Below are positions 883-54,473 of a stretch of DNA of 64,000 nucleotides, piece by piece. The position numbers were made by a program, and so were the translations under genes. The notes beneath the pieces were generated by a model. That model did not search any database. It was not told the origin of the DNA and worked only from the letters and a program-made list of their open reading frames with translations. Numbering within the stretch: the first letter of the stretch is position 1; each line of letters opens with the position of its first letter. This stretch comes from Candidatus Nealsonbacteria bacterium (GTDB lineage: Bacteria; Patescibacteriota; Minisyncoccia; Minisyncoccales; JANBVM01). The DNA is taken from positions 593,131 to 657,130 of the forward strand of contig CP061210.1 of assembly GCA_026016225.1 (NCBI GenBank), given 5' to 3'.

Positions 883-1581
883 CTAAATTCTGTTTATTAT
901 TACTGCACTTTTACCATCTTCACTGACCTTAAAATCATCAAAAACTATTGGAACTCTTTTTTGAACATCTTTTAAGAGATTAATCATTACCCTTCTAATT
1001 TCCCAATGAGCTCCAGGAGCACATCTAAGTTTAAAAATATGCCGCCATTCTCTAAAATTTGCCCCCACGATAATCTGTGATTTTATTCCTATTGGAATTA
1101 CCTGTCTAGAATCTTCACATTTCCATTCTGCTTTTCTTAAACCTCGATACATTTGTTCGTTCAAATCCATCCAATCTCTAAAAGAAACTTTTATCTTTTT
1201 GTCGTTGGGCAAGATTAATTCAACAAGTTTTTCATCGGGATCTTTTGTGGGAGGAATAACTACTTCAAAGTCACTCTCGTCAACTCTTCTGGTTGATTCT
1301 TGAACATAAGAAGCTAAACGGTGACGCACAAGCTCATGGGTAAAACCCCTGGAAACATTATTGAATTGCACAATCATTGAAGAAAATTCAAGAACGCTTT
1401 CATGCCCTAATTTTCTTAGCATCTCGACAAATTTCGTTGCTGAAGTATCAGTGATTTTCCCTTGAGATTGGTAAGAAACCCTACCTGCTAACTCAATTAA
1501 TTGCAAAGGTTTCTCTCCTTTCAGTCCATAGGTTACAGCTACAATTTCGAAATTTCCTTCATTTTTCAAAATCTTTACCAA
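883..1581 (-). CDS. thyX: flavin-dependent thymidylate synthase
   Basis: The protein carries the ThyX signature RHRxxSxxxxSxR (RHRLASYVQESTRRV). Length is 232 aa. Confidence 0.85.
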   Translation of the reverse strand: MVKILKNEGNFEIVAVTYGLKGEKPLQLIELAGRVSYQSQGKITDTSATKFVEMLRKLGHESVLEFSSMIVQFNNVSRGFTHELVRHRLASYVQESTRRVDESDFEVVIPPTKDPDEKLVELILPNDKKIKVSFRDWMDLNEQMYRGLRKAEWKCEDSRQVIPIGIKSQIIVGANFREWRHIFKLRCAPGAHWEIRRVMINLLKDVQKRVPIVFDDFKVSEDGKSAVIINRI

Positions 1582-1640
1582 TTTTTTCTACCATTCCAAT
1601 TATATTAATTTTTTAACGAATATTATTTCCTAACACAAAC

Positions 1641-1665
1641 AAAAAACTCTGTCAAATTAACAGAG
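1641..1665 (-). terminator. intrinsic terminator after the dCMP deaminase gene
   Basis: Minus strand reads CUCUGU-uaauuug-ACAGAG followed by U6, about 25 nt after the stop at 1689. Confidence 0.55.
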
Positions 1666-1688
1666 ACTATAAATGGCTTTAAAAATCT

Positions 1689-2222
1689 TTAAACTTCTTT
1701 TAATTTCTTGTTTTGGTCCCGGCCGTATTGTTGTTTATCATCTAAGACATCTCCTTCCTGCCAATCTTTAACCCAATCTTGAACATTAAAAATTCTGTAT
1801 TCTCCATCGTTGGTGGAACAAACTACTCTGTTCAAACCAGCATTAATGAGCATTTTTTTACAAATAAAGCAAGGAAAAGCATCAGCCACCTTCCCCTGTA
1901 TATTTTCACAGTAAATAAACATATCTCCACCCAACACGCTTGCTCCCGAACGGGCTGCATTTATTAATGCATTTTGCTCTGCGTGCACGCTTCGGCAGAG
2001 TTCGTATTGTCTACCGTGAGGAATTTTCAATTTGTCTCTTAAACATTCACCTCTTTCAAAACAATCCCTTGTTTTTCTCGGAGCTCCATTATAACCGGTA
2101 GCCACAATCGCATCATCTTTTACAATAATTGCTCCAAATTTCATTCTAAAACAGGTTGAACGTTGGGCAATTTCTTTTGCAATATTTAAATAATATTTAT
2201 CCTTTGGAGGTCTTTTTTTCAT
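1689..2222 (-). CDS. deoxycytidylate (dCMP) deaminase, ComEB-type
   Basis: Zinc motifs HAEQNAL and PCFICKKMLINAG of the CMP/dCMP deaminase family. Confidence 0.8.
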   Translation of the reverse strand: MKKRPPKDKYYLNIAKEIAQRSTCFRMKFGAIIVKDDAIVATGYNGAPRKTRDCFERGECLRDKLKIPHGRQYELCRSVHAEQNALINAARSGASVLGGDMFIYCENIQGKVADAFPCFICKKMLINAGLNRVVCSTNDGEYRIFNVQDWVKDWQEGDVLDDKQQYGRDQNKKLKEV

Positions 2223-2239
2223 AGATTTGTAATGCTAAT

Positions 2240-2665
2240 TCATCCTTGAATCTCTATTCCCATATTTTTAGCTGTAGCTTCAATAATCTTCATTGCCTTT
2301 TCTACATCTTCAGTATTCAAATCAGCCATTTTCTGTTCGGCTATTTTTCTTAACTGTTCTTTTGTAATTTTACCTACCTTTTTTTTGTTGGGCTCTCCTG
2401 AACCTTTTTCAATACCTGCTGCTTTTTTTAATAAATCAGAAACCAAAGGTTGTTTTACCTTAAAATCATAACTTTTATCTTCATAAACACTAACTATTAC
2501 CGGAATTACAGAACCCTGTTTTTCTTTGGTTACATCATTAAACTTCTTACAAAAATCAGCAATGTTCAGACCGTGCTGAGCTAAAGCAGGCCCCACCGGA
2601 GGAGCAGGAGTAGCTTGACCTGCTGGAATTTGTAATTTTATTACAGCTGTGATTTTTTTAGCCAT
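2240..2665 (-). CDS. rplK: 50S ribosomal protein L11
   Basis: Canonical L11 N-terminus [26 protein letters not shown]. It follows nusG. Confidence 0.95.
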
Positions 2666-2683
2666 ATTGAAATTAGAAAACAG

Positions 2684-3229
2684 TTATAGTTTTTTCACCT
2701 GAAGAGAATCAAGTTCTATTGGGGTGTCCCTGCCAAACATATCCACTAAAACTTTTATCTTTCCCTTTTCTTCATCAATCTCTGAAACTCTGCCATCTGA
2801 ATCCTTAAAAGGACCATCTGTAATTTTTACTAAATCACCAATCTTAACCTCAATTTTAAATTGGGGCTCCTCTATTTCCATCCTCTTTTTCAAGTTATTA
2901 ATCTCTTCTTCAGAAACCGGAATAGGGATAGTTCCAGCTCCAATAAAACCCGTTACATTAGGAGTATTTCTTACAATATACCAAGAGTCATCTGTAACAA
3001 TCATTTCAACTAAAACATAACCTGGATAAATTTTTTCCTCAACCACTTTTCTTTTACCGCTTTTAATCTTTATTTTTCTTTCTTTAGGGACAATAACATT
3101 AAAGATTTTATCTTCCATACTTAAAGACTCAATCCTCTGCCTCAGATTTTTAGCTACAGATTCTTCATATCCCGAATAAGTGTGTAGAACATACCAGTTT
3201 CTTTTTTGGGGTAGTTTTTGTTTTGGCAT
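2684..3229 (-). CDS. nusG: transcription termination/antitermination factor NusG
   Basis: NGN start (WYVLHTYSGYE) and a C-terminal KOW (ITDGPFKDSDGRVSEID). It sits between secE and rplK. Confidence 0.9.
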   Translation of the reverse strand: MPKQKLPQKRNWYVLHTYSGYEESVAKNLRQRIESLSMEDKIFNVIVPKERKIKIKSGKRKVVEEKIYPGYVLVEMIVTDDSWYIVRNTPNVTGFIGAGTIPIPVSEEEINNLKKRMEIEEPQFKIEVKIGDLVKITDGPFKDSDGRVSEIDEEKGKIKVLVDMFGRDTPIELDSLQVKKL

Positions 3230-7543: not shown

Positions 7544-8596
7544 TTAAAATTGATTTAAAAATCTGAGGTCGCCTCCATAAAACAACCTAATATCATTGAT
7601 TTTATATTTAAGCATAGCCATTCTATCCATACCCATACCAAAAGCAAAAGCCTGCCAGTTTTTAGGGCTTAAACCAGAATTCTTGAAAACATTAGGATGA
7701 ACCATCCCTCCCGGAAAAACCTCTAACCATCCACTCTGACCACAAGTACTGCAACCTTTCCCATTACATATTGCACACTGAACATCTACTTCAAAAGAAG
7801 GTTCTGTAAAGGGAAAATAACCCGGTCGAAGGCGAACTTTTAAATCTTTCTTAAAAAATTGTTTGAAAAATTTTTTTGCTATTGCTTTAAAATTAGCAAC
7901 AGAAATTGTTTTATCAACCATTAATCCTTCAACCTGGTAAAAATTAATCTCATGTCTGGCATCAGTTGCCTCGTGCCTAAATACCCTGCCAGGAACAATA
8001 ATTCTTAAAGGAGGCTGATTCTTTTCCATGTAACGAACCTGAACAGGAGAAGTTTGGGTTCTCATTAAAAACTTATTTCGAGAAGGAAGATTTTCTCTAT
8101 TCCTTTGCTTTATAAACAAAGTATCTTGCATATCTCGAGCTGGATGGTTTTTGGGAAAATTCAAAGCATCAAAGTTATACCACTCATTTTCAAGCTCAGG
8201 ACCCTCAATAATTGAAAAGCCCATTGACTGGAATATCTTTTCGATTTCTATTTTAGTCTGGGTCAAGGGGTGTAAATGACCAACAGCCGGCTTTTTCCCG
8301 GGGATTGTAATATCAAAAAACTCCTCTTTTTCTCTCCTTACACCTGCCTTTTCTTTAATTTTCAGGCTTTTTTTAACAATCTTCTCTTCTAAAACAGCTT
8401 TAAGCTTATTTGCTTCTTTCCCAACCTTTACTCTTTTTTTCTTTGGCATCTTTTTCAGAGAACGCAAAACCAGGGAAAGTTCACCTTTCTTTCCTAAATA
8501 TTGTTTATAAACATCGTTCAACTCAGTTAAATTTTGGCTCTTTTTTATCTCTTTTTCAGCCCTTTTTTCAATGTTTTTTAAGTTAATTTTTTTCAT
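7544..8596 (-). CDS. pheS: phenylalanine--tRNA ligase alpha subunit
   Basis: Class II motifs (HPARDMQDTLF, FRHEATDARH, GMGMDRMAML). Confidence 0.92.
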   Translation of the reverse strand: MKKINLKNIEKRAEKEIKKSQNLTELNDVYKQYLGKKGELSLVLRSLKKMPKKKRVKVGKEANKLKAVLEEKIVKKSLKIKEKAGVRREKEEFFDITIPGKKPAVGHLHPLTQTKIEIEKIFQSMGFSIIEGPELENEWYNFDALNFPKNHPARDMQDTLFIKQRNRENLPSRNKFLMRTQTSPVQVRYMEKNQPPLRIIVPGRVFRHEATDARHEINFYQVEGLMVDKTISVANFKAIAKKFFKQFFKKDLKVRLRPGYFPFTEPSFEVDVQCAICNGKGCSTCGQSGWLEVFPGGMVHPNVFKNSGLSPKNWQAFAFGMGMDRMAMLKYKINDIRLFYGGDLRFLNQF

Positions 8597-8796
8597 TTCT
8601 TCGCTAAAAAATAAGTTCCTTCTACTATTAATTTTACCTTAATTTTTGCCTTAAATCAAGGTAAAACTGTGCACAAATAAACCTCCTTAAAATAAAAAAA
8701 ACAGAAGAAATAAATATAAAAAAAATTACATTATTTTTTCTTTCTGTTTTTTGATATACAATTACATCCAATTACATACAATTCTATCTAATTTTG

Positions 8797-8870
8797 CGGG
8801 GACGACGAGACTCGAACTCGCAACCTCGTGATCGACAATCACGAGCTCTAACCAATTGAGCTACGTCCCC
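8797..8870 (-). tRNA. tRNA-Asp (anticodon GTC)
   Basis: Minus strand: GGGGACG TA GCTC AATTGGTTA GAGC T CGTGA TTGTCGA TCACG AGGTT GCGAG TTCGAGT CTCGT CGTCCCC G. Cloverleaf is canonical with a TTCGAGT T-loop and a GG D-loop. No CCA is encoded. Confidence 0.85.
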
Positions 8871-8874
8871 AGGG

Positions 8875-8947
8875 TGCCGGTGACGGGACTCGAACCTGTA
8901 ACCTCTAGCTTATGATGCTATCGCTCTAACCATTGAGCTACACCGGC
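8875..8947 (-). tRNA. tRNA with CAT anticodon (elongator Met or Ile2/lysidine type)
   Basis: Minus strand: GCCGGTG TA GCTC AATGGTTA GAGC G ATAGC ATCATAA GCTAG AGGTT ACAGG TTCGAGT CCCGT CACCGGC A. G1-C72 is paired and the T-loop is canonical. There is one A/C mismatch in the T stem. Confidence 0.75.
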
Positions 8948-8948
8948 T

Positions 8949-9019
8949 TTGCGGTGCCTGGAATTGCACCAGGGCCTCCAGCTTATGGGACTGGCGAGGT
9001 ACTACTCCTCTACACCGCG
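8949..9019 (-). tRNA. tRNA with CAT anticodon and an initiator-like acceptor (C1/A72 mismatch), atypical loops
   Basis: Minus strand: CGCGGTG TA GAGG AGTAGTA CCTC G CCAGT CCCATAA GCTGG AGGC CCTGG TGCAATT CCAGG CACCGCA A. The acceptor resembles E. coli tRNA-fMet (CGCGGGG...CCCCGCA). Atypical points are C at position 33, no GGG/CCC in the anticodon stem, a D-loop without GG, and T-loop TGCAATT. Confidence 0.5.
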
Positions 9020-9031
9020 ACAATATCGCTA

Positions 9032-9060
9032 ATTTTAGCTTTTTTGAACACAAGAGTCAA
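9032..9060 (-). promoter_or_regulatory. sigma70-like promoter for the tRNA trio
   Basis: Minus strand reads TTGACT (9055-9060), a 17-nt spacer, then TAAAAT (9032-9037). The -10 ends 12 nt upstream of tRNA position 1. Confidence 0.5.
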
Positions 9061-9088: not shown

Positions 9089-9604
9089 TCACAACGCCTC
9101 CAAATCAACCAAAGCTTTTTCGTATACATCTAAAACCCTTTTTGACTCTTTTATATCCAAGCGATAACTTATATCATGAACAATATTCAAACATACTTTG
9201 TGAGCCTCTCTGACTTCTTCAATATTCTCAATAACGTTGGTAGTTAACTTGTTTAATCTCTCTTCTAAAGTCTGACCTAAAAAACCCTCTTTTTGTAAAA
9301 TATCGTTCAAAATAGCTTCTGCTTCAATTATGGCTAACTTTGCTTCAGGTTCACTGCCTGTATCCAATTTTTCTCTAATCTTAACCCATTTCTTATCGAT
9401 TCTTGGTAATCCATAATGTCGAAAAGTTAAGTATTCTTTAATGTCCCAAAATATTAGTCTTTTTAACCAGGTGGTTCTAAGTAAAACAAGAACAATTGTT
9501 ACAATGAAAAATAAATTTAGAGCTAAAAAGATAAATTTTACAATCAAAAGCCAGTCAGGAAGAATGGGGTTTAAAATAAATTGAATTATATTATCTAAGG
9601 TCAT
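9089..9604 (-). CDS. hypothetical membrane-anchored protein
   Basis: 171-aa ORF with an N-terminal TM segment (WLLIVKFIFLALNLFFIVTIVLVLL) and a helical C-terminus. I recognise no family. Confidence 0.45.
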   Translation of the reverse strand: MTLDNIIQFILNPILPDWLLIVKFIFLALNLFFIVTIVLVLLRTTWLKRLIFWDIKEYLTFRHYGLPRIDKKWVKIREKLDTGSEPEAKLAIIEAEAILNDILQKEGFLGQTLEERLNKLTTNVIENIEEVREAHKVCLNIVHDISYRLDIKESKRVLDVYEKALVDLEAL

Positions 9605-11352: not shown

Positions 11353-12396
11353 TTAATGTGGAGGTTCTAACTCTGCTGTCTCCACCAATACTTCCTCTAA
11401 CTCATCTAAATTCTCTAAAACCATCCCCGCTCCCCTAACAACAGCTGTCATTGGGTCTTCAATAATTCTTGTTGGTATCCTTGTCTCTTTCTGAATTAAT
11501 ACATTTAATCCTCTTAAAAGAGCTCCGCCACCTGACAAATAAATTCCTTTTGTCATTACGTCAGCTAAAAGTTCAGGCGGTGTCTCTTCAATAGCTATTT
11601 TAATTTCTGTCACAATTCTTCCTATAGATTTTTCCATCGCCCTCCTTACTTCCCTATGAGAAATCAAAACTTCTTCAGGAAGACCAGTTACTAAATTTCT
11701 TCCTCGCATTGGAATTTCTTTTTTCTCTTTTAAAAGATGGGCTGAACCTATACCAATTTTAATCATTTCAGCTGTTCTCTCCCCGATTAATAGTTTATAT
11801 TCTTCCTGGGCAAAATGAATTATGTCATCATTAAGCTTATCTCCAGCTATTCTAAGACTTTTTGATAAAACTATACCTCCTAAGGAAATTACTGCCACCT
11901 CTGTTGTACCTCCTCCGATATCGACAATAAAATTCCCGCCTGCTTCCTGAACGGGCAATCTAGCTCCAATGGCTGATGCCATTGGTTCGTCAATTAAGAA
12001 AACTTCTCTTGCTCCCCCCGATTTTGCAGCATCAATCACTGCTTTTTTTTCTACTTCAGTTACTCCGGAAGGTATACCAATGATAATTCTTGGTCTGAGC
12101 CACCTTTTTTTCCTGGTTTTCTCAATAAAATACCTCAGCATTTGTTCTGTGACTTCAAAGTCAGAAACCACTCCGGCCCTTAAAGGTCTGGTTGCCACAA
12201 TATAAGAAGGGGTTCTCCCTACCATTTTTTTAGCTTCAGAACCAATTGCTAAAACCTGACCTGTTTTTTTATTTACAGCAACTATCGAAGGCTCTTGCAT
12301 AACAATACCCCTTCCACGTACATAGACCACAGAGTTGGCAGTACCAAGATCAATAGCAATATCCTCTGATAAAGCTTTAAAGATTTTTTTCAACAT
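11353..12396 (-). CDS. mreB: rod shape-determining actin homolog MreB (copy 1)
   Basis: IAIDLGTANS, DIGGGTTEVAVISLGG and LSGGGALLRGL motifs. Confidence 0.9.
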   Translation of the reverse strand: MLKKIFKALSEDIAIDLGTANSVVYVRGRGIVMQEPSIVAVNKKTGQVLAIGSEAKKMVGRTPSYIVATRPLRAGVVSDFEVTEQMLRYFIEKTRKKRWLRPRIIIGIPSGVTEVEKKAVIDAAKSGGAREVFLIDEPMASAIGARLPVQEAGGNFIVDIGGGTTEVAVISLGGIVLSKSLRIAGDKLNDDIIHFAQEEYKLLIGERTAEMIKIGIGSAHLLKEKKEIPMRGRNLVTGLPEEVLISHREVRRAMEKSIGRIVTEIKIAIEETPPELLADVMTKGIYLSGGGALLRGLNVLIQKETRIPTRIIEDPMTAVVRGAGMVLENLDELEEVLVETAELEPPH

Positions 12397-15362: not shown

Positions 15363-16280
15363 TTAAAGCTTCATCATTAATATTTCTAAAGCTAATCTTG
15401 GGTTAATGTTCGTGGTTGAAATTACATAAATTGTTTCTTGAATAGCGTCGAGAATGTTTTTTATTTTTAATAAATTTGGTCTGTTTTTAGCAAAAAGTAA
15501 ATTCTTTCTGAAATAAAACAACCAAGCATCCAATGTTTCTTTCAGGTCTTCTTTTTGGGATAATTCTTTAACATATTGAAAACGTAAAGAAAGCGGAGAA
15601 TTTGAAATTTTTTCCAATTTTTTTATCTTTTTCTTTCTCTGTTCTAATTTCTCGGAGTTTTGCAAAAAATTAATAGCTTTTCCGGGTCTCCCTAATGAAA
15701 GTTCAACAATTTGTTTAATATCTTCCTTCGGAACTTTTTTTTGTTTCAAGTAAAGACTTATTTCTTCATTTTTCACGGAGTAAAACTTAACATTTTCACA
15801 CCTTGAAAGGATAGTAGGTAAAAGATAACCTGGATGCTCTGTAATTAAAATTAAAAGACTTTTAGTTTTTGGTTCTTCTAAGCTCTTTAAAAAACAGTTT
15901 TGGGCCTCCCGGGTCATTAAATGAGCTTTATCAACTATTACGCCTAAAAGAGGTGCTTTTATAGGTTTTAAGGATAATTTCCAATTAAGCTCTCTAATCT
16001 GAGCAATTTGAATCTGCTCACGCACCAGAGCAGACCTCGGAGCGGGGGTGTTGCGCCCAACCGAACTTTGTTCTGGTCTGGGATGTTTTGTTCTTGGGAC
16101 AATCAAAATAAAATCTGGATGACGAGACAGTTCTTCTTTAAAAAGAGAAGAAATTAGCTCTAAAGCTATTGTTCTTTTACCTAACTCTTCGGGTCCGGTA
16201 AACAGTAAAGCATGAGGAATTTTTCCTGAGCTAACTATTTTTTTTAAAAACTCTTGTTGTTTTTTATGGCCAATAATCAC
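15363..16280 (-). CDS. holB: DNA polymerase III delta-prime subunit
   Basis: HALLFTGPEELGKRT P-loop-like start, HPDF, and the SLEEP...ILSRC sensor region. It contains a GC-rich insert of about 20 aa. Confidence 0.7.
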   Translation of the reverse strand: MIIGHKKQQEFLKKIVSSGKIPHALLFTGPEELGKRTIALELISSLFKEELSRHPDFILIVPRTKHPRPEQSSVGRNTPAPRSALVREQIQIAQIRELNWKLSLKPIKAPLLGVIVDKAHLMTREAQNCFLKSLEEPKTKSLLILITEHPGYLLPTILSRCENVKFYSVKNEEISLYLKQKKVPKEDIKQIVELSLGRPGKAINFLQNSEKLEQRKKKIKKLEKISNSPLSLRFQYVKELSQKEDLKETLDAWLFYFRKNLLFAKNRPNLLKIKNILDAIQETIYVISTTNINPRLALEILMMKL

Positions 16281-17278
16281 TGTTTCTTCCTCATTATTGT
16301 TTTTTTATAGAGGTCTAAATTTTCTAACATTACTCCTGTTCCCTTTGCTACGCATAAAGACGGGTCCTCAACTAAAATAGCTGGAACACCTATGGATTTG
16401 GCAATTAATTCTGGAAGATTATCTAATAGAGAACCTCCTCCTGTCATTACCATCCCTTTATTCATGATATCAGCCGACAGTTCAGGTGGAGTATCTCTAA
16501 GTACTAATTTAATTACGTGAATAATCTCGGAAAGAATATCAGAGAGGGCTTCGCACATATCATTTGACGAAATTTTAATATTTTTAGGTAATCCTAAAGA
16601 CATATCTCTTCCTCGAATCTCCATCTTTTTTTCTTCCTTCTCGGGAAGAGCGGTACCGATTCTCTTCTTTATCTCCTCTGATGTTTGTTCTCCGATAGCT
16701 AAATTGTATTTCTTCCTAATATAATCAGAAATAGCAATATCCATTTTATCTCCTGCTATTCTTATAGAATGAAAATTAACAATTCCACCCAAAGAAATCA
16801 CTGCAGCTTCAGTTGTCCCTCCCCCAATATCAACAATCATATTACCGGAACAACTATCAATTGGAACCCCCGCTCCAATAGCTGCTAAGATGGGCTCTTT
16901 CGCTAAATAAACTGTTTTCGCTCCGACATTCATGCCGGCTTCAATTACCGCCCTTTTTTCAGTAGAAGTAATACCGGCTGGAACACCAATCATCAAATCT
17001 GGCTTGAAAAGGCGAAAATGACCCATCGTTTTATCAATAAAATGTTTAAGCATTGCCTGGGTTACTCTAAAATCAGCAATCACTCCGTCCTTAAGAGGTC
17101 GATAAATACGGATTGTATCGGGAGTACGTCCCATCATTTCTTTAGCTTCTCTTCCCACAGCTAAAATCTCATTCTCTGCTATGGCTACTGCCACTACTGA
17201 TGGTTCTTGTAAAACCACTCCTTTTTTAGGAATAAAAACAACTGAATTGCAGGTTCCTAAATCAATACCAATTCTCAT
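16277..17278 (-). CDS. MreB-like actin homolog (copy 2)
   Basis: MRIGIDLGTCNS, DIGGGTTEAAVISLGG and MTGGGSLLDNL motifs. It lacks the N-terminal extension of copy 1. Confidence 0.85.
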   Translation of the reverse strand: MRIGIDLGTCNSVVFIPKKGVVLQEPSVVAVAIAENEILAVGREAKEMMGRTPDTIRIYRPLKDGVIADFRVTQAMLKHFIDKTMGHFRLFKPDLMIGVPAGITSTEKRAVIEAGMNVGAKTVYLAKEPILAAIGAGVPIDSCSGNMIVDIGGGTTEAAVISLGGIVNFHSIRIAGDKMDIAISDYIRKKYNLAIGEQTSEEIKKRIGTALPEKEEKKMEIRGRDMSLGLPKNIKISSNDMCEALSDILSEIIHVIKLVLRDTPPELSADIMNKGMVMTGGGSLLDNLPELIAKSIGVPAILVEDPSLCVAKGTGVMLENLDLYKKTIMRKKQ

Positions 17279-25668: not shown

Positions 25669-27483
25669 TTATTCAAGAATTGCTCGAATTCTTCTTATCC
25701 CGGCTCCTGCTGACTCTTCTTTTACAATTTTAAAATGCCCTAATTCCCCTGTACTATTTTCATGGGGCCCGGCACAAATCTCTTTTGAAAAAATTTTTCC
25801 TCCAGACTCCCTAATAGAATATACCGTCACCCTATCAGGGTATTTATCTTTGAAAAAAGCCAGGGCTCCTGATTTTACGGCTGTTTGATAGGGCAATTCC
25901 TCTTTTATAACCTCTAAATCTTCTTTTATTTTCTGGTTAACCAAGTCTTGAACTCTTTTAAGTTCTTTATCTGTTAATTTTTGAGGGTGAGAAAAATCAA
26001 ACCTTAAACGTTGAGGGGTAATATCAGAACCCATCTGCTTTACATGAAAGCCTAAAACATTCCTTAAGGCTTGATGAAGTAAATGAGTAGCAGTGTGAAG
26101 TTTTGTAGCTGTATAAGTAGCTTCCTTGCCAATTCCACCAAATTTCTTTTCAACCCCTGCCCTTGAAATCTCCTGATGTTTCTTAAATTCCTCTTTAAAT
26201 CCTTTTTTATCAACCTTTATCCCCTTTTCTTTAGCTAACTCCTCGCTTAATTCCAGAGGGAATCCATAAGTATCGTAAAGATGGAAAGCATCACTGCCTG
26301 AAATATTTCCTTTTGATGAGATTTTTTTAAACTGTTTCAAACCCTTTTTTAAGGTCTTCTCAAATCTTTCTTCTTCTCTTTGAATTACGGTTAAACTATC
26401 TGTTTGTTTAGATTTTACTTCAGGATATACATCTTTGTAAATTTCAATCACTTTTTTGGCTAAAGGAACCAAGAAATTATTTGGCAAATTGAGCACTTTT
26501 CCAAATCTTATTGCTCTTCTTAAAATGCGTCTCAAGATATATCCTTGCTCCACGTTTGATGGAAGAACTCCATCAGCTGTTAGAAAAACAATTGACCTGA
26601 TGTGGTCAGCCAAAATTCTAAAAATTCTCTTTTCTTCCTTTAATTCCTTTAATTCCTCATATTTTTTAGAAGAGATTCTTTCAAGTTCCTGAATCACTGG
26701 CAAAAATAAATCTGTTTCATAAGCTGAACTTTTGTGCTGTAAAAGAGCTGCCAACCTTTCAAAACCTACTCCTGTGTCTACATTTTTTTGAGAAAGAAGT
26801 TTATAACTTCCATCCTCATCTTTAAAATATTCCATAAAAACTAAATTCCATAATTCTACAAAACGCTTGCAATTGCCGCAATTAGGACCGCATTCAACTG
26901 CCCCACAACCAAATGACTCACCTCTATCATAAAAGATTTCTGAACAAGGTCCGCAGGGACCCCTTTTCCCAACCGGTCCCCAAAAATTATCTTTTATTCC
27001 AAATTCTCTTATTCTTTCTTCTGGAATTCGGTTTTCTTGCCAGATTCTCTTTAACTCTTCATCTTTAGGTATGTTCTTCTCGCCTTTAAAAACAGTTGTC
27101 CAAAGTCTATTTTTATCTAAACCTAAAACATCCACGAAAAATTCTAAAGCATATTTAACAGCCCCTTCTTTGAAATAACCTTTCTCTGCATCTTGCCCAA
27201 TCGACCAATTCCCTAACATTTCAAAAAAAGTATGATGAGTATCATCTCCCACCTTATCAATATCGTCCGTTCTAAAACATTTCTGGCAAGAAGCCAAATG
27301 TCTCCGACCAAAATCTACGATAGGGTCTTTTTCTCCTTGTAAATATAAAGTAAATTGCTGCATTCCAGCTGTAGTAAATAAAACTGTTGTATCTTCTGGC
27401 AATAATGAAGAAGAAGGCACAATTTTATGCCCCTTTTTCCTAAAGAAGTTTAAGAATTTTTTTCTTATCTCTTTTGAAATCAT
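25669..27483 (-). CDS. alaS: alanine--tRNA ligase, short form without the C-Ala domain
   Basis: The catalytic core (FFRKKGHKIVPSSSL, WGPVGKRGPCGPCSEIFYD) and the editing-domain motifs HTATHLLHQALR and CAGPH are present. Length is 604 aa versus roughly 870 aa for typical AlaRS. Confidence 0.9.
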   Translation of the reverse strand: MISKEIRKKFLNFFRKKGHKIVPSSSLLPEDTTVLFTTAGMQQFTLYLQGEKDPIVDFGRRHLASCQKCFRTDDIDKVGDDTHHTFFEMLGNWSIGQDAEKGYFKEGAVKYALEFFVDVLGLDKNRLWTTVFKGEKNIPKDEELKRIWQENRIPEERIREFGIKDNFWGPVGKRGPCGPCSEIFYDRGESFGCGAVECGPNCGNCKRFVELWNLVFMEYFKDEDGSYKLLSQKNVDTGVGFERLAALLQHKSSAYETDLFLPVIQELERISSKKYEELKELKEEKRIFRILADHIRSIVFLTADGVLPSNVEQGYILRRILRRAIRFGKVLNLPNNFLVPLAKKVIEIYKDVYPEVKSKQTDSLTVIQREEERFEKTLKKGLKQFKKISSKGNISGSDAFHLYDTYGFPLELSEELAKEKGIKVDKKGFKEEFKKHQEISRAGVEKKFGGIGKEATYTATKLHTATHLLHQALRNVLGFHVKQMGSDITPQRLRFDFSHPQKLTDKELKRVQDLVNQKIKEDLEVIKEELPYQTAVKSGALAFFKDKYPDRVTVYSIRESGGKIFSKEICAGPHENSTGELGHFKIVKEESAGAGIRRIRAILE

Positions 27484-47595: not shown

Positions 47596-48006
47596 TTATT
47601 TCTCTTTCTTCGTGCCGTACTTGGAGCGTTCCTGTTTTCTTCCCTCAACACCTCCTGCATCTAACACTCCTCTAACCACCTTGTAGTTTACTCCCGGTAA
47701 ATCCTTTATTTTTGCCCCCCTAATTAAGACTACCGAATGCTCTTGTAAATCGTGACCTTCTCCGGGAATATAAGCAGTCAGTTCCTGTCCATTGCTTAAA
47801 CGAACCCTGGCTACTTTTCTTAAAGCTGAGTGAGGCTTCTTTGGAGTCATAGTAAAAACCTTAATACAAACTCCTCTTTTAAAAGGAGATGGATGTCTTG
47901 ATCTTCTATTTTTCAAAACATTAAAGGTAAATTTAAAAACAGACGCTTTTTTGCGTTTTTTAATCTTTTTTCTTCCCTTTTTAATTAATTGATGAATAGT
48001 TGGCAT
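47596..48006 (-). CDS. rpsL: 30S ribosomal protein S12
   Basis: [12 protein letters not shown]...[19 protein letters not shown]...GVNYKVVRG. The ATG at 48006 is preferred. Confidence 0.94.
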
Positions 48007-48060
48007 AGTAATAATTGAAAAGATTAACACAAACTAAAAAGGAAGTCAACACTTTTCTGT

Positions 48061-48696
48061 TTAAAAAAGTGGAGCACCAACAATTATAGTAAAAATCCAA
48101 TTAACAATATAAATTAAAAATTGAAAGAACCATGGGAAAAAGAAAATAAGAAAAATCAAAATGAAAAAACCAAATTGAGTTAGAAATATTTTTATTTTCT
48201 GCATTGAATAAGGCAAGAAAGTAAAAAGAACATGTGAACCATCCAAAGGCGGAATGGGTAATAAGTTAAATACACCTAAAATTATATTTAAATAAATAAT
48301 AGAAGAAAAAATTGAAGCAAGACTACTAGGAATGAAGCCTAAAGAAAAGCGAAGAATTAAACCAAAAACTAAAGCCACAGCTAAATTTACTCCTGGTCCA
48401 GCTAAAGCTACTTTAAGGGAACCATATTTTTGGTCTCGAAAATTATAAGGATTAATTGGTACAGGTTTTGCCCAACCAAAACCTCTGCCTGTGGTAAGAA
48501 TTAAAAAAAGCGGTACAATAACTGAACCAATTAGATCTAAATGTTTTGAAGGATTCAAAGTAAGACGACCGGCGTATTTTGCTGTTGGATCGCCTAAGTA
48601 ATCTGCCATAGCTCCATGAGAAACCTCATGAATAACAATAGAAAAAATCAAAATAATAATTTGTAATATAAGAGATACCAGAAATAAAAATTCCAT
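48061..48696 (-). CDS. site-2 protease family (M50) membrane metalloprotease
   Basis: HEVSHG zinc motif in TM1, and LLPIPPLDGSH. Confidence 0.7.
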   Translation of the reverse strand: MEFLFLVSLILQIIILIFSIVIHEVSHGAMADYLGDPTAKYAGRLTLNPSKHLDLIGSVIVPLFLILTTGRGFGWAKPVPINPYNFRDQKYGSLKVALAGPGVNLAVALVFGLILRFSLGFIPSSLASIFSSIIYLNIILGVFNLLPIPPLDGSHVLFTFLPYSMQKIKIFLTQFGFFILIFLIFFFPWFFQFLIYIVNWIFTIIVGAPLF

Positions 48697-48756
48697 ATTA
48701 GATAACTATACCAGATAATTTACAAAAATAAAAATTTTTGGTAAAATGTGACTACT

Positions 48757-48978
48757 ATGGCAAAGCAATGTCAAATCTGCGGAAAAACCTCGCAAAAGTT
48801 TAGAAAACTAATTAAACTTCGAGGAAAGTATAATCCAAGCACTAAAAAAAGAAGGTACCCTAATTTGCAATGGGTCCGGGTTCCTGGTGGAACAAAAAGG
48901 AAAAAATTTAAAAGCTTTGCAGGAAAAAGGATTTTAGCCTGCACAAAATGTATCAAAACCCTGGGAAAGATAAAATAA
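48757..48978 (+). CDS. rpmB: 50S ribosomal protein L28
   Basis: MAKQCQICGKT...KKRRYPNLQWVRV matches the L28 pattern C.ICGK...R.F.PNLQ. It is preceded by a TGgTAAAAT extended -10. Confidence 0.8.
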   Translation: MAKQCQICGKTSQKFRKLIKLRGKYNPSTKKRRYPNLQWVRVPGGTKRKKFKSFAGKRILACTKCIKTLGKIK

Positions 48979-48982
48979 TTTT

Positions 48983-49057
48983 CGGGCTGTAGCGCAGTTT
49001 AGTTAGCGCGCTCGCATGGGGCGCGAGAGGCCGCCGGGGCAGAGCCGGCCAGCCCGA
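48983..49057 (+). tRNA. tRNA-Pro (anticodon GGG) with non-canonical T- and D-loops
   Basis: CGGGCTG TA GCGC AGTTTAGTTA GCGC G CTCGC ATGGGGC GCGAG AGGCC GCCGG GGCAGAG CCGGC CAGCCCG A. All four stems are perfect and G37 is present. The T-loop is GGCAGAG rather than TTCRANY, and the D-loop lacks GG. Confidence 0.6.
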
Positions 49058-49088
49058 CACTTTTATTTAGAGACGCTAAAAAATGAAC

Positions 49089-49171
49089 TACCCCGCCCTA
49101 AAGGGACGGGGTATCCCTTCCGCCAACTGGCGGAGGGGCAAGTTCTTTTGCCCCGCCTGGGCGGGGCAAAA
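49089..49171. repeat. cluster of three GC-rich hairpins between tRNA-Pro and the nuclease-like gene
   Basis: TACCCCGCCC-taaa-GGGaCGGGGTA at 49089-49113. CCTTCCGCC-aact-GGCGGAGGG at 49115-49138. TTTTGCCCCGC-ctgg-GCGGGGCAAAA at 49146-49171. None is followed by a T-run. Confidence 0.8.
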
Positions 49172-49179
49172 TAAAATCT

Positions 49180-50037
49180 ATGAGTAAAGTTATTGTTAAG
49201 TGCTCTTATTGTAAAACGGAATTCCAGCGAGAATTGGGAAGATACAACGAAGCAATAAAGAAAAGTTGGAATCAGTATTGCTCTCAAGAATGTCAAAATA
49301 AGTCTAAGATTAAAAGAGTAGAAAAAATTTGCGGTAATCCAAAATGTAACAAGAGGGTGTCTCGTAAATTCCACGAATTTAAAAAATCAAAATCAGGCAG
49401 CATCTTTTGTTCTCTTTCTTGTGCCGTGTCGGTCAACAATTCTAAATTTCCAAAAAGACAGGCAATAAAAAGAAAATGTCTCTATTGTGAAAAAGATTTT
49501 GTCGGCGGAAAGAAATATTGCTCGATAAAATGCAAAAATAAAGCCCAAATTATAAGCAAAGAAGAAATCTGTGATAAAATTAAAGGGTTCTATAAAAAAT
49601 ATAGAAGGATTCCTGTCAAAAAAGAGTTCTCTCATTATAATGCTGCTCGAGATCGGTTCGGTTCTTGGAATAAAGCAATAGAATCAGCAGGCTTCGTACC
49701 TAATCCAGTAGTATTTGCAAGAAAGCACAAAGCAGAAGATGGACATGTGTGCGATTCTCTATCGGAAAAAATTGTTGATGATTGGCTTTCTAAAAACAAC
49801 TTAAAGCACAAAATTAATGTTGCCTATCCAGGGAATCCCCGTCTAACATGTGATTTTTTAGTAGGTAACTATTTTATAGAATTTTTCGGAATTGGAAAAG
49901 AACACGTACGATACACAGAACTAATGAAAGAAAAAAGGCGATTGGCTCAACAGTATAACCTTAATATGGTAGAACTAAAGCCTGAACACATTTTTCCTAA
50001 AAATAAGTTAGACGCTGTATTAAATTTTCTTCTATAA
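49180..50037 (+). CDS. multi-Zn-ribbon protein with homing-endonuclease-associated repeat and C-terminal PD-(D/E)XK/Vsr-like nuclease-like domain
   Basis: Three CxxC...(F/Y)CSxxC modules are followed by FYKKYRRIPVKKEFSHYNAARDRFGSWNKAIESAGF, an HNH-associated-repeat-like pattern. The C-terminus is CDSLSEKIVDDWL...TCDFLVGNYFIEFFG, like small DUF559/Vsr-type nuclease folds. The family assignment is pattern-based only. Confidence 0.45.
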   Translation: MSKVIVKCSYCKTEFQRELGRYNEAIKKSWNQYCSQECQNKSKIKRVEKICGNPKCNKRVSRKFHEFKKSKSGSIFCSLSCAVSVNNSKFPKRQAIKRKCLYCEKDFVGGKKYCSIKCKNKAQIISKEEICDKIKGFYKKYRRIPVKKEFSHYNAARDRFGSWNKAIESAGFVPNPVVFARKHKAEDGHVCDSLSEKIVDDWLSKNNLKHKINVAYPGNPRLTCDFLVGNYFIEFFGIGKEHVRYTELMKEKRRLAQQYNLNMVELKPEHIFPKNKLDAVLNFLL

Positions 50038-50105
50038 AAACAACTAAGATTAATTACAGAGATAGAAATTCTCGGGTATTCTAAACTTAGCGCGAACCTA
50101 TTTTC

Positions 50106-50155
50106 AGCGAAACGCCTAACCGCCGTTTCGCTTTGCCCGCGCGAAGCGCGGGCAA
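50106..50155. repeat. two adjacent perfect GC-rich hairpins downstream of the nuclease-like gene
   Basis: AGCGAAACG-cctaaccgc-CGTTTCGCT at 50106-50132. TTGCCCGCGC-gaa-GCGCGGGCAA at 50133-50155. Confidence 0.8.
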
Positions 50156-50187
50156 GGAAAAGAAAGTTTTTCAAAAATCTTTATTGG

Positions 50188-50212
50188 ACGCCGTAAAAAT
50201 CGGTGTTTTTTT
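50188..50212 (+). terminator. intrinsic terminator
   Basis: ACGCCG-taaaaat-CGGTGT (one G-T pair) followed by T7. Confidence 0.5.
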
Positions 50213-50260
50213 GTTGTTTTTGTAAAAGGAGCATTTTTACGAAAAACCGGTCTTTTGCTC

Positions 50261-50289
50261 TTGACAAAATTAAAGTATGGGTGTATAGT
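50261..50289 (+). promoter_or_regulatory. sigma70-like promoter
   Basis: TTGACA (50261-50266), a 17-nt spacer, then TATAGT (50284-50289). Confidence 0.6.
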
Positions 50290-50341
50290 AGAGGTGTAAG
50301 AATAAGATAGTTCTTTGAAAAAATATGGGGAAGGGAATTTG

Positions 50342-50388
50342 CATCACCCGAATTGTTCATCAAATTCTGGTGGCCAGCTCGGGTGATG
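50342..50388 (+). promoter_or_regulatory. leader hairpin that can sequester the Shine-Dalgarno of the downstream ORF
   Basis: CATCACCCGA (50342-50351) and TCGGGTGATG (50379-50388) form a perfect 10-bp stem, with a nested CTGG-tgg-CCAG hairpin inside. The 3' arm contains GGTGA 7 nt before the ATG at 50394. Confidence 0.45.
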
Positions 50389-50393
50389 TAAAA

Positions 50394-50903
50394 ATGAAAA
50401 TAATAGATAATAGCAAAGCAATAATATTGGGGGAGAAGGTAAGGTTTAAGAAAAACGCAACATTAATTGATGAAAAAATAAAGGTTAACCGGGATTATAT
50501 AGTAAAACAAGTGGAAACACAAACACTTAACTTTAGAAAACGAGGAATTAGAAAGATTAATCAAATTATAGAACTACAAGAGCTACCAGGGCGCTGGTTT
50601 TCAGTAGATTGGCTTGATTTAGTCGAGTCAGAGGAAATCCCAATTCGTGGAATAAACCTAGTTTCATTCGAAGAATATAAGAAGCTTGGAGGAAAGTTGG
50701 CTAGGGAGGAACACAAACGGCTTAAGCGAATAAGCTCTCCACAAGAGGAATATCGAGAAGCATTCAGAGTGGCTGGTGATGTAGGGTGTGGATATCCTCC
50801 TCATCCAGAAATGGAGTTACTTGCAAGAGTATGCATGTTGAAGTCTAACCTTTCATCGTTAGATAAAATGTGCGAAATGCTCCTTCTGCAAGGTAAAAAA
50901 TAA
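50394..50903 (+). CDS. hypothetical protein (ORFan)
   Basis: The track ORF 50325..50903 has an alternative ATG at 50394 (MKIIDNSK...) with a GGTGA SD, whereas the ATG at 50325 has none. I recognise no family. Confidence 0.4.
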   Translation: MKIIDNSKAIILGEKVRFKKNATLIDEKIKVNRDYIVKQVETQTLNFRKRGIRKINQIIELQELPGRWFSVDWLDLVESEEIPIRGINLVSFEEYKKLGGKLAREEHKRLKRISSPQEEYREAFRVAGDVGCGYPPHPEMELLARVCMLKSNLSSLDKMCEMLLLQGKK

Positions 50904-51046
50904 TCCTCTCCCTTTCCCCCTCTCTTTTCGAGCCCATAAAGAATTGTGGGTTGGAAAAAGAAGTTAATTATCTAACAAAATTTATTATAGAAAGAGAGAA
51001 AATCAATGCTCGCTTTTTTTTATTTATTGAAAACACACCCTAAAAC

Positions 51047-51207
51047 CAAAAAACACCGCAATGCGGCGTTTTTTAGAGCCCTGCTTTACTCTGGAAAAGC
51101 TAATCTGGAAAAATCCAAGTGGGTGTCTAAGATGTGTCCCACGGGACACATTCATTTCGAACTCCCTCTAAAAGCTTATACCAGATTTAACCAGAAAAAG
51201 CAGGGCT
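51047..51207 (-). ncRNA. candidate structured sRNA of about 160 nt (closing stem / large internal bubble / apical hairpin; 6S-like architecture), class unknown
   Basis: It has its own promoter (51213-51241). Helices are 51197-51207/51077-51087 (11 bp perfect), 51191-51194/51091-51094, and 51181-51187/51102-51108. The apical hairpin is GUGUCCC..GGGACAC at 51134-51149. The terminator ACGCCGC-auu-GCGGUGU plus U6 lies at 51047-51069. Confidence 0.45.
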
Positions 51208-51212
51208 ATTTT

Positions 51213-51241
51213 ATTTTATGCTTCCTGCACCCCTTTGTCAA
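51213..51241 (-). promoter_or_regulatory. sigma70-like promoter driving the sRNA candidate
   Basis: Minus strand reads TTGACA (51236-51241), a 17-nt spacer, then TAAAAT (51213-51218). Confidence 0.55.
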
Positions 51242-51267
51242 CTTTCCTAACTTTTTAGCTTCTTAAC

Positions 51268-52332
51268 TTAAATATTGAAAACATCAACCAATTGTTTTAT
51301 CAAAGAAACAACTACCGGTGGAGGTAATAAACTATAAGAAGAGACACCTTCATCATCTGTCACTACCCATGGTTTCTCTTTTATTTTTACTTTTTTTATC
51401 TTTTTATCCCATTCAAAAATATATTCTGGGGTTATTTCATAATCATCAACAAAATTTGCAGCTTCCTTAACAGGTACCGAATTTCTCAATAAAACCTTTG
51501 GAATTCCATAGAGAGAAAAAGATTGTCTAATTAATTTATCATCCATAATTAATCTTTTTTTTATAGGTGCAATCCCCAACTCGTCTCCTTCTTTTAAAAT
51601 CATTTTAGCTTTTTTACACCTGGGATTGTCGCAAATTAAATAAAATTCATTGCTTTTTTCATCAAATCCAGCTTCTGAGGTTGGAAGTAGCTTTAAGTTT
51701 CTCGAAGTCTGGCAAACCGGACAAATCCTTCTCCATCTAATTCTTTCATCAATTACTTTTTCAGGAACATCAATTAAAATAAAAACGTCCGGGTCATCTC
51801 GATGACCAACCAAGTCTCTGAAAAACAAAGAAAAATCTATCTGGTCTAAATCCCTTGGAAAACCATCCACAAAAAGAGTTTTCTTTTCCATTCTTTCCAT
51901 CTCTCTTTTAACCAAAGTTAAAATCAATTCTGTAGGTAAAAGAACTTTTGTGCTCCTGTTTTCTAAAAGGGATATTATTTCTTTAATTGAAATCCTGCCC
52001 CGATAATTTCTTTTTAAAAAATCAAAGAATCCTTCTCTCTTTTTTTTATCTGTTAATTCTCCGTCTATTTTTCTAATCATATCTCCAATGGAAAAGTGCT
52101 CTATCTTTTCAGGCCCAATAATTTCTGCAAACATCTTTGAATAAGTTCCCTTACCTGAGTTTTTCTTACCTAACAAATAAGCAACAAAAGTATTTTCTTT
52201 CAAATACTCTTTTAATTTTTCTATCTCTTTTCCTGCTTTGGCTTTAAAATATTTTTTTCTCTCCCTGAGGTTTATTAAATTAAATTTTTTTTCAAAGCCT
52301 TTAATTTTTGTTTTAAAAAGAGGAAATTCCAT
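51268..52332 (-). CDS. divergent adenylate-kinase-family protein with extended Zn-lid and an extra C-terminal domain of about 100 aa
   Basis: P-loop GKKNSGKGT, DGFPRD, and lid RWRRICPVCQ...CDNPRCKK. It is a second AK-like gene besides adk at 32154. Confidence 0.5.
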   Translation of the reverse strand: MEFPLFKTKIKGFEKKFNLINLRERKKYFKAKAGKEIEKLKEYLKENTFVAYLLGKKNSGKGTYSKMFAEIIGPEKIEHFSIGDMIRKIDGELTDKKKREGFFDFLKRNYRGRISIKEIISLLENRSTKVLLPTELILTLVKREMERMEKKTLFVDGFPRDLDQIDFSLFFRDLVGHRDDPDVFILIDVPEKVIDERIRWRRICPVCQTSRNLKLLPTSEAGFDEKSNEFYLICDNPRCKKAKMILKEGDELGIAPIKKRLIMDDKLIRQSFSLYGIPKVLLRNSVPVKEAANFVDDYEITPEYIFEWDKKIKKVKIKEKPWVVTDDEGVSSYSLLPPPVVVSLIKQLVDVFNI

Positions 52333-53203: not shown

Positions 53204-53315
53204 TTTTTACACTATAAACAATTTGATTATTTACTTCAACAATAATCTTTGACAAAAATATAAAGATATGTTAGAAATAGGTAGTTACATTATATATTAT
53301 TTTAAATAAGACAGA

Positions 53316-53672
53316 ATGGGTGAGGAAAGATTGGAATCGTTTAAAATAAAAGCAGAAGAGGATAAGGAAAATCCTCCAGAAATACCACCGTTGCCTAATA
53401 AGAAAGGAGATTTAATAAAGTTATCAAGGAAAAGATTTGAAGTTGTAGCAAGAGGTTTACCAGACCTAAACCTGACCTTTAAACCAGGAGCAATAAGCAC
53501 ATTCTTTGAAGGCGTAAGATGTCCTTTCTGTGCTACGAGGTTCATTAGAAAAGTAACATGTGGTCATTTAAACATTACGCGTGAACCTTTCTTGTGTCCT
53601 AATTGTGACTTTCCAACAAATGTTTATAAAGTTAGAGATGCTCTTTTAAAGAAAAGTAATCTGAATTTATAA
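53316..53672 (+). CDS. hypothetical Cys-rich protein (CPFC...CPNC)
   Basis: 118-aa ORF. I prefer it over the antisense ORF 53297..53545 because of its composition and Zn-ribbon-like Cys pairs. Confidence 0.4.
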   Translation: MGEERLESFKIKAEEDKENPPEIPPLPNKKGDLIKLSRKRFEVVARGLPDLNLTFKPGAISTFFEGVRCPFCATRFIRKVTCGHLNITREPFLCPNCDFPTNVYKVRDALLKKSNLNL

Positions 53673-53704
53673 ACAATGAGGGTAATAACTTACTCTCTTT
53701 TTTT

Positions 53705-53750
53705 ACACCCTCACTGCTATCCTGAAAGGAGCATAGTTGTCTAAACTTTG
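53705..53750 (+). repeat. left copy of an imperfect 45-bp direct repeat
   Basis: acaccctcactgctatcctgaaaggagcatagttgtctaaacttt matches 54974-55019 at about 33 of 45 positions with no gaps. Confidence 0.6.
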
Positions 53751-53758
53751 AATTAACT

Positions 53759-54106: not shown

Positions 54107-54234
54107 TGTGAAGTATTGCCGTAAAAAGTAGAATAAAGTCTTGCAGGCAAAGTATAAGCCTGCCTTTTTTATTCCTAAAGCCAAAAAACCAAAGCTTTTA
54201 AACTTTGGTTTCAATTTTAAAGGGAGCTTTATTT

Positions 54235-54465: not shown

Positions 54466-54473
54466 AAAATTGG

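Follow-up and report, generated by a model that had tools for sequence, protein, structure and literature searches.

Can a tRNA that lacks several near-universal nucleotides still start translation? This question is raised by a short tRNA(CAU) gene in a 64-kb stretch of DNA from a Candidatus Nealsonbacteria bacterium (contig CP061210.1, positions 593,131 to 657,130), which is called the window below. The gene is of the initiator type, is 71 nt long to the discriminator nucleotide and lies at 9019..8949 on the minus strand. The original prediction, made from the letters of the window, gave no strand and offered two options: an initiator that has diverged strongly yet still functions, or a decaying tRNA. 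Our results suggested that it is very probably a functional initiator tRNA of a Parcubacteria-type bacterium, the first member of a three-tRNA unit upstream of pheS-pheT, with an alternative, selected elbow. Synteny and covariation speak for the first option of that prediction and effectively refute the second.

Hallmarks of the tRNA(CAU) gene

A comparison by tRNA finders had been proposed as a check, and ARAGORN and the Rfam tRNA model both recognized the gene. ARAGORN called it tRNA-Met(cat) at 8948-9020. Rfam RF00005 matched 9019..8949 over the full model (1-71) with 53.0 bits (E = 1.5e-8), and the gathering score of this family is 29 bits. The RNA reads CGCGGUG UA GAGG AGUAGUA CCUC G CCAGU CCCAUAA GCUGG AGGC CCUGG UGCAAUU CCAGG CACCGCA A. 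Its main features are as follows.

8949..9019, minus strand: initiator tRNA, anticodon CAU, 71 nt (ARAGORN, Rfam RF00005, sequence and orthologue alignment)
8983..8989, minus strand: anticodon loop C32 C33 C34 A35 U36 A37 A38, with C33 at 8988 (sequence)
9002..9003, minus strand: D-loop A18 (9003) and G19 (9002), with A18 in place of the near-universal G18 (sequence)
8966..8968, minus strand: T-loop U54 (8968), G55 (8967) and C56 (8966), with G55 in place of the near-universal U55 (pseudouridine 55; sequence)

C1 (9019) faces A72 (8950) as a mismatch, A73 is at 8949, and the anticodon C34 A35 U36 occupies 8987-8985. The acceptor pairs G2-C71, C3-G70 and G4-C69 are all present. So is the D-stem pair A11-U24, which is typical of bacterial initiators and was not listed in the original prediction. 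What that prediction had described of the acceptor end, the anticodon arm and the size was found as described: the C1-A72 mismatch together with CAU, C33 in the loop CCCAUAA, the lack of three G-C pairs in the anticodon stem, G55 (8967) within the T-loop UGCAAUU, a variable loop of four nucleotides, 71 nt in total and no encoded CCA. At 29-31:39-41, the anticodon stem has A29-U41, G30-C40 and U31.G39. Only one G-C pair of the usual three is left, and the strict initiator feature of three consecutive G-C pairs (29-31:39-41) is absent from this tRNA.

The description of the elbow needs to be corrected in one respect. The D-loop had been said to lack both G18 and G19. AGUAGUA corresponds to A14 G15 U17 A18 G19 U20 A21, so G18 is indeed replaced, but G19 is kept and is invariant in the relatives described below. 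The full T-loop is U54 G55 C56 A57 A58 U59 U60. Compared with the canonical elbow, the tRNA differs at exactly two co-varying positions, 18 and 55, and the remaining elements of the elbow (G19-C56, U54-A58, G53-C61, purine 57 and the purine 15-pyrimidine 48 pair) are intact. The elbow is thus non-canonical in departing from G18/U55, as had been claimed, but it is not broken; the departure is one precise co-varying swap.

Conservation and covariation of the elbow

Eighty loci from related genomes of the candidate phyla radiation (CPR) were scanned for tRNAs. In about 25 of the 80 (Parcubacteria/Nealsonbacteria), the same order was found: the short initiator tRNA(CAU), a second tRNA(CAU), tRNA-Asp and pheS. 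The orthologues of the initiator gave a gap-free alignment of 18 distinct sequences. Of the cells of this alignment that belong to cloverleaf pairs, 93% were paired; the D, anticodon and T stems were 100% paired, and a double compensatory change was seen in 14 of the 23 stem pairs. None of 500 shuffles matched the observed pairing measures, and all slid registers collapsed. RNAalifold returned the cloverleaf unaided from the same alignment.

Single positions were conserved to different degrees. The 1:72 position is unpaired in 15 of the 18 orthologues (C, A or U opposite A) and is U-A or U.G in the others. G2-C71 is kept in 17 orthologues, and C3-G70 and G4-C69 are kept in all 18. A11-U24 is present in 14, and the four relatives with a canonical elbow have U11-A24. 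In the anticodon stem, G30-C40 is invariant (18/18), with flanking pairs that vary by compensated change (29:41 is A-U or G-C; 31:39 is G-C, U.G or C-G). The same combination of A29-U41, G30-C40, U31.G39 and C33 as in the window occurs in another species (L064). G19-C56 and G53-C61 are also found in 18/18, and the Levitt pair is G15-C48 in 14 orthologues and A15-U48 in 4. This covariation and the constancy of G19-C56 make the numbering of the D-loop secure.

This alignment, another check that had been proposed, bears directly on the possibility of a decaying or pseudo tRNA, in which the elbow, C33 and the weak anticodon stem would be accumulated damage. Such an origin would fit an Rfam score of 53 bits below the 66 and 71 of the neighbouring tRNAs, the joint alteration of several near-universal nucleotides, and a single-sequence minimum free energy (MFE) structure that is not the cloverleaf. 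However, orthologues from many species keep the same features, their stems have changed in a compensatory way across the 18 distinct sequences, and positions 18 and 55 change only jointly. A strong promoter-like site lies directly upstream, and the MFE structures of the canonical neighbours are not cloverleaves either. The recurrence of the feature set in other genomes, together with the compensatory changes, makes it more than chance, and the atypical features are not private defects since they are usual in this lineage and in many phage initiators. We regard decay as extremely unlikely. Judged from the alignment, the elbow is a precise co-varying replacement of G18/U55 by A18/G55.

The conserved positions also bear on whether the gene is an elongator tRNA-Met or a lysidine-modified tRNA-Ile2(CAU), with the true initiator elsewhere in the genome. 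Bacteria have three kinds of CAU tRNA, the window covers 64 kb of this genome, and one G-C pair out of three would suit an elongator. In contrast, C1xA72, with 1:72 unpaired in most orthologues, is a hallmark of bacterial initiators; A11-U24, A73 and G2-C71/C3-G70 are hallmarks too, and G30-C40 is invariant. The adjacent tRNA(CAU), with G1-C72 and a canonical elbow, fills the elongator or Ile2 role, and textbook initiators stand at the same position in relatives (for example L011 and L036). An elongator or Ile2 function is therefore very improbable.

The two elbow positions are strictly linked. A18 is present in 14 of the 18 orthologues, all with G55, and G18 in the other 4, all with U55. The D-loop AGUAGUA and the T-loop UGCAAUU are shared by most orthologues. 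Canonical-elbow initiators were found at the same genomic position in seven loci (L011, L036, L043, L044, L050, L058 and L076), with D-loops of the form xxxGGUA and T-loops UUCGAAU or UUCAAUU. Extending the count beyond the orthologues gave the same two states.

Distinct CPR CAU tRNAs with a 7-nt D-loop: 15 A18G19/G55C56, 9 G18G19/U55C56, 0 A18/U55 or G18/G55
Distinct phage initiator-like tRNAs, positions 18, 33 and 55 left free: 24 A18G19/G55C56, 63 G18G19/U55C56, 0 mixed
Distinct phage tRNAs with a 7-nt D-loop, among those fetched: 125 A18/G55, 263 G18/U55, 0 mixed

One G18 CAU tRNA in the CPR set has C55. The phage initiator-like set came from IMG/VR, with a search pattern in which CAUAA, the acceptor stem and a D-loop of 7 nt were fixed and positions 18, 33 and 55 were left free. 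In targeted scans of all IMG/VR, the combination of A18 and G55 gave at least 120 matches. The mixed states there gave 2 matches for A18 with U55 and 1 for G18 with G55, none of which is a tRNA; these are chance matches. Five apparent exceptions (L105, L110, L156, L162 and L193) were rejected as shifts in the parsing of the D-loop.

The sole mixed state was seen in metagenomes. A scan for A18, CAUAA and U55 through 241 million records found 7 tRNA-like sequences, and these A18/U55 initiator-like tRNAs on metagenome contigs (L304-L310) could be rare evolutionary intermediates or decaying copies. In at least 5 sequence subfamilies, the elbow state differs between members that are 90-91% identical outside 18/55. 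Since such close pairs differ in their elbow, the comparison points to a switch that occurred repeatedly. A cultured example comes from the Dolichocephalovirinae, in which Caulobacter phage CcrSC has AGUCCGGUA/UUCAAAU and Brevundimonas phage Kikimora has AGUCCAGUA/UGCGAAU.

The syntenic position also speaks to a further alternative, that the gene is an additional initiator, specialised for example in stress, in mRNAs without a leader or in starts at codons other than AUG, beside a canonical one elsewhere. The variant elbow and C33 would then be signs of this specialisation. Phages do add variant-elbow initiators to the canonical one of their host, which means that both types can share a cell, and another copy could lie beyond the 64-kb window. 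On the other hand, relatives have one of the two types at the syntenic locus, variant or canonical, and in no case both. The small size of CPR genomes and their usually single-copy tRNAs count against an additional initiator. Because relatives carry either type at one syntenic locus, replacement is favoured over addition, and we consider a second initiator unlikely.

Other departures from the canonical elbow were observed in the same sets. Three CPR elongator tRNAs (L012 3055-3127, Met; L018 3672-3744, Met; L059 2521-2593, Thr) have C55, with the T-loop UCCGA and a normal G18-G19, and a few phage tRNAs are alike. C55 is a second, different departure from the 'universal' pseudouridine 55 in related CPR genomes. 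In five phage tRNAs from IMG/VR (L084, L085, L139, L174 and L180), G19-C56 is changed to A19-U56, with the T-loop UUUGA and GA in the D-loop.

Enrichment in initiators and a possible mechanism

The variant elbow was found in 15 of 24 distinct initiators of related bacteria and in 0 of about 80 other tRNAs, and as the locus sets compared here and below were selected differently, such ratios are indicative and not calibrated. G55 occurs in none of the other tRNAs of the CPR loci (second CAU, Asp, His, Arg, Thr and others). Among the at least 120 phage loci with a G55 initiator, the other distinct tRNAs were U55C56 in 366 cases and G55 in 5, and two of these five are clearly also A18-G19 (L206, Leu-UAA; L296, Thr-UGU). 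A variant-elbow sample was also drawn by fixing only the D-loop AGUAGUA and the T-arm GGUGCRANNCC, which is blind to acceptor and anticodon; 61 of its 69 tRNA-like sequences have CAU. Taken together, these indicative counts suggest that A18.G55 works in any tRNA yet is strongly enriched in initiators.

Two of the eight non-CAU sequences in this sample (both from IMG/VR) combine an initiator-like body with A18/G55: L390 (CUU, with a C1xA72-type acceptor) and L317 (CCU). They could be initiators whose decoding has shifted to codons other than AUG, or initiator-derived elongators.

Among cultured phages, the variant elbow was found in Brevundimonas phage vB_BpoS-Kikimora, whose tRNA-Met (L418, ON529857.1 154048-154124) has A18-G19/G55 with a 9-nt D-loop. 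Other cultured-phage matches obtained by BLAST, which does not separate the elbow types, have a canonical elbow (Aeromonas AP1 and CC2, Agrobacterium Atu_ph07, Caulobacter CcrSC, Yersinia fHe-Yen9-04, Rhizobium RHph_TM3_3_3 and Vibrio nt-1). Because Kikimora is a phage of an ordinary alpha-proteobacterium, its variant tRNA argues against a tie between this elbow and CPR-specific ribosomes.

C33 is likewise specific to initiators in this clade. It is present in 12 of 21 distinct CPR initiators versus 0 of 83 other CPR tRNAs, and in phages in 12 of 131 initiators versus 18 of 689 other tRNAs. C33 is independent of the elbow, since it occurs with both elbow states. In the literature, C33 has been described for multicellular eukaryotes, in their initiators; bacterial examples are given as U33, and the E. 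coli TsaBCDE enzymes add no t6A to a U33C substrate (PMC8887486). Judged from its distribution in the compared sequences, C33 is another trait that this clade confines to initiators, and it is convergent with those of multicellular eukaryotes. Separately, the tRNA-Met of Pseudomonas phage D3 (L421, AF165214.2 53398-53473) has C33 together with three G-C pairs.

Comparison with known systems places the gene among bacterial initiators. It resembles E. coli tRNA-fMet (metZWV/metY) in CAU, C1xA72, A73, G2-C71, C3-G70, G4-C69, A11-U24, G30-C40, G19-C56, U54-A58 and G53-C61. The E. coli tRNA differs in having G18/pseudouridine 55, U33, three G-C pairs, a 9-nt D-loop and a 5-nt variable loop, whereas in the window tRNA the elbow is A18/G55, position 33 is C, the D-loop has 7 nt, the variable loop has 4 nt and CCA is not encoded. 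The variant initiators of mycoplasmas and alpha-proteobacteria (au/GC/GC, GC/GC/gu and au/GC/gu; PMC5389676) are alike in a first A-U pair, G30-C40 and a wobble at the third pair. Unlike the window tRNA, they keep the canonical elbow and U33. Their stems have three consecutive purine:pyrimidine pairs (PMC5389676), whereas the third pair here is pyrimidine:purine, U31.G39, with C31-G39 in relatives.

The cytoplasmic initiator of multicellular eukaryotes shares the initiator-only C33 (PMC8887486) and also has an initiator-specific change in its T-loop. It differs in A54 (PMC7912444) and A60, in retaining G18/pseudouridine 55, in A1-U72 and in the lack of formylation. Of the eukaryotic features, C33 alone is shared by the window tRNA, which has C1xA72, U54 and U60. 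The likeness to eukaryotic initiators is convergent and does not reflect common descent. The phage initiator-like tRNA-Met (IMG/VR; Kikimora) is closer: it shares the two-state elbow, a mismatched or weak 1:72, the invariant G30-C40, variable flanks that include the three pairs of the window, and occasionally C33. Phage versions differ in that most have a 5-nt variable loop and that the T-loop UGCGA is commoner than UGCAA; they are accessory genes, and the host has its own initiator.

The variant T-loop also fits a wider motif. Generalised T-loops, such as those in RNase P, in the L1 stalk of rRNA and in stem I of the T-box, have a pentaloop that is closed by a U-A reverse-Hoogsteen pair and takes up an intercalating purine between its positions 4 and 5 (PMC4810234), and UGCAA fits this description. 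Pseudouridine 55 is called the most conserved modified nucleotide of tRNA (PMC7912444), and U55/pseudouridine 55 is termed universal in standard reviews (PMC7912444, PMC4810234). The A18/G55 swap was not described in the full-text literature searched, which excluded most subscription journals, so that an earlier description is possible. G at position 2 is common in T-loops outside tRNA. To our knowledge, position 2 of the tRNA T-loop, nucleotide 55, is described as universally pseudouridine, and G18, G19, pseudouridine 55 and C56 are all taught as universal.

A tRNA of this kind could be made and used as follows. RNase P would cut at the next tRNA, after which the 1-nt trailer would be trimmed and CCA added. 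From its identity elements, methionyl-tRNA synthetase would charge the initiator through CAU and A73. A 1:72 mismatch is a formylation determinant and an anti-determinant for EF-Tu and Pth, and G2-C71, C3-G70 and G4-C69 are determinants of the E. coli formyltransferase. The combination of C1xA72 with these three pairs would make the tRNA a substrate of methionyl-tRNA formyltransferase and a poor substrate of EF-Tu. G30-C40 would support licensing in the P site and release of IF3, with the flanking pairs relaxed to A29-U41 and U31.G39. In E. coli, G30-C40 is the essential pair of the three and suffices, and au/GC/gu is found among natural variants (PMC5389676).

In canonical tRNAs, G18 is intercalated between 57 and 58 and is joined to pseudouridine 55 by one hydrogen bond, and G19-C56 forms an exposed platform (PMC4810234). 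An A18-G55 contact would replace that of G18 with pseudouridine 55. The L-shape would be expected to stay unchanged, because all other elbow-building elements are retained (a purine 18 intercalating 57/58, the G19-C56 platform, the U54-A58 reverse-Hoogsteen pair, G53-C61 and the purine 15-pyrimidine 48 pair). Position 55 would no longer be open to pseudouridylation and would present a different surface. This surface is one that initiation factors touch: R25, Q33 and R66 of the IF3 N-terminal domain (IF3-NTD) contact G19, pseudouridine 55, C56 and A57 of the initiator (PMC9723500).

The preference for initiators may have two reasons, which do not exclude each other and which we infer from the route of this tRNA through the ribosome. 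The initiator bypasses the EF-Tu A/T state and the A site, and would be freed of the constraints that fix 18/55 in elongators. It alone has its elbow held by the IF3-NTD, where A18/G55 may be tolerated or even favoured. The initiator also occupies the P site when translocation first takes place, and this step reportedly depends on the 18-55 pair (Pan et al. 2006, as cited in PMC4810234 and PMC11363252).

Several observations weigh against a functional initiator with a selected elbow. Within the family, the anticodon stem is weakest in the window copy, with its one G-C pair, and U31.G39 departs from the purine:pyrimidine pattern of the known natural variants. The MFE structure of the single sequence (-32.2 kcal/mol) is more stable than the cloverleaf (-27.2 kcal/mol) and is not a cloverleaf; as the MFE structures of both canonical neighbour tRNAs are likewise not cloverleaves, single-sequence folding was dropped as evidence. 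Neither fmt, def, infC nor truB was found by Pfam among the about 50 open reading frames (ORFs) scanned in the window, with no match to Formyl_trans or Pep_deformylase among them, although an absence from 64 kb tells little about the genome, and tblastn with E. coli IF3 found no infC in the window or the 80 related loci. In E. coli, mutation of 18-55 in the P-site tRNA slows translocation according to Pan et al. 2006, as cited in PMC4810234. A18/G55 is also used by a few elongators of phages, among them L206 (Leu), L296 (Thr) and L312 (Gly), so the variant is not exclusive to initiators, and the enrichment ratios carry the limit given with them.

Genomic surroundings and significance

ARAGORN found three adjacent minus-strand tRNAs, which are the only tRNAs in the window. 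The features that accompany the initiator are listed below.

8875..8947, minus strand (ARAGORN 8873-8947): second tRNA(CAU), elongator Met or Ile2 (ARAGORN; Rfam 66.1 bits)
8797..8870, minus strand (ARAGORN 8796-8870): tRNA-Asp(GUC), canonical elbow, last of the tRNA cluster (ARAGORN; Rfam 70.8 bits)
8596..7544, minus strand: pheS, downstream of tRNA-Asp (Pfam on the product)
9032..9060, minus strand: promoter-like TTGACT, 17 nt, TAAAAT (consensus scan, 10/12 matches)

The second tRNA(CAU) has G1-C72 and a canonical elbow, with GG in its D-loop and UUCGAGU as its T-loop. One nucleotide (8948) lies between the discriminator of the initiator and G1 (8947) of this tRNA, and four (8871-8874) lie between it and tRNA-Asp, the same spacing that the original prediction had given. 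The promoter-like site ends 12 nt upstream of the 5' end of the initiator. By its motifs and position, this putative promoter is likely the start of a three-tRNA transcript.

The cluster is flanked by gatC-gatA and a 171-aa ORF on one side and by pheS-pheT-gyrB on the other, all on the minus strand; its neighbours are housekeeping genes. Pfam gives no match for the 171-aa ORF (9089-9604, minus strand), which lies between gatA and the promoter-like site of the tRNAs. PheS shares 60-65% identity with proteins from metagenome-assembled genomes of Nealsonbacteria, Parcubacteria and Paceibacterota, with none closer among species representatives. This places the organism within the CPR/Patescibacteria, as the original prediction had supposed. 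The G+C content of the window is about 33%, and a region of ribosomal-protein and EF-Tu/EF-G genes also lies in it.

Further observations were made elsewhere in the window. On the minus strand, nusG (2684-3229) and rplK (2240-2665) are followed by dCMP deaminase (1689-2222) and thyX (883-1581), and rplK lacks the usual rplA-rplJ-rplL after it in this part (883-3229). The L1 stalk holds the elbow of the E-site tRNA, and a Parcubacteria subgroup is reportedly without ribosomal protein L1. A possible loss of L1 was rejected as a cause of the variant elbow, as the elongators of the same genomes keep canonical elbows and as the variant also occurs in a phage whose host is an ordinary alpha-proteobacterium. 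This small-genome bacterium has two full-length MreB/Mbl paralogues less than 5 kb apart (11353-12396 and 16277-17278, both minus strand). The alanyl-tRNA synthetase (25669-27483, minus strand) has 604 aa and stops after the second additional domain, without the C-terminal C-Ala domain. From about 48000 to 54500, GC skew is at or near zero, and it is negative over the rest of the window; positive skew is limited to 48-50 kb. This part carries several plus-strand ORFs, among them one for an HNH-repeat (homing-endonuclease-associated) protein (49180-50037) and others without a family match, and it may be an inserted element.

What the elbow does for the cell is a separate matter from whether the tRNA works. 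A18.G55 could be a selected, previously unrecognised initiator-specific elbow state that retunes start-site fidelity or the first translocation, a proposal that we put forward tentatively and hold to be doubtful. If it were true, the elbow would not be a neutral alternative; the loss of pseudouridine 55 and the altered surface held by the IF3-NTD and uL5 would explain the repeated fixation in CPR bacteria, and the phage copies would be initiators that are handled unlike that of the host or that escape factors targeting the host initiator.

The comparisons indicate a natural, strictly co-varying replacement at 18-55 that is common in one tRNA class of many uncultured bacteria and phages. It offers a natural compensating pair, A18/G55, for studying the 18-55 contact in the P site. 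The variant elbow explains the lower scores from tRNA finders, and knowing it helps to keep initiators of CPR bacteria and phages from being annotated as pseudogenes. With C33 and only one G-C pair in their anticodon stem, these bacterial initiators widen the known natural range of initiator identity, with G30-C40 as the shared core. Two cultured phages, Kikimora and D3, are experimentally tractable carriers of these traits. The exemption of the initiator from the A site may relax the constraints on its elbow, which would hint at the origin of the 18/55 constraint.

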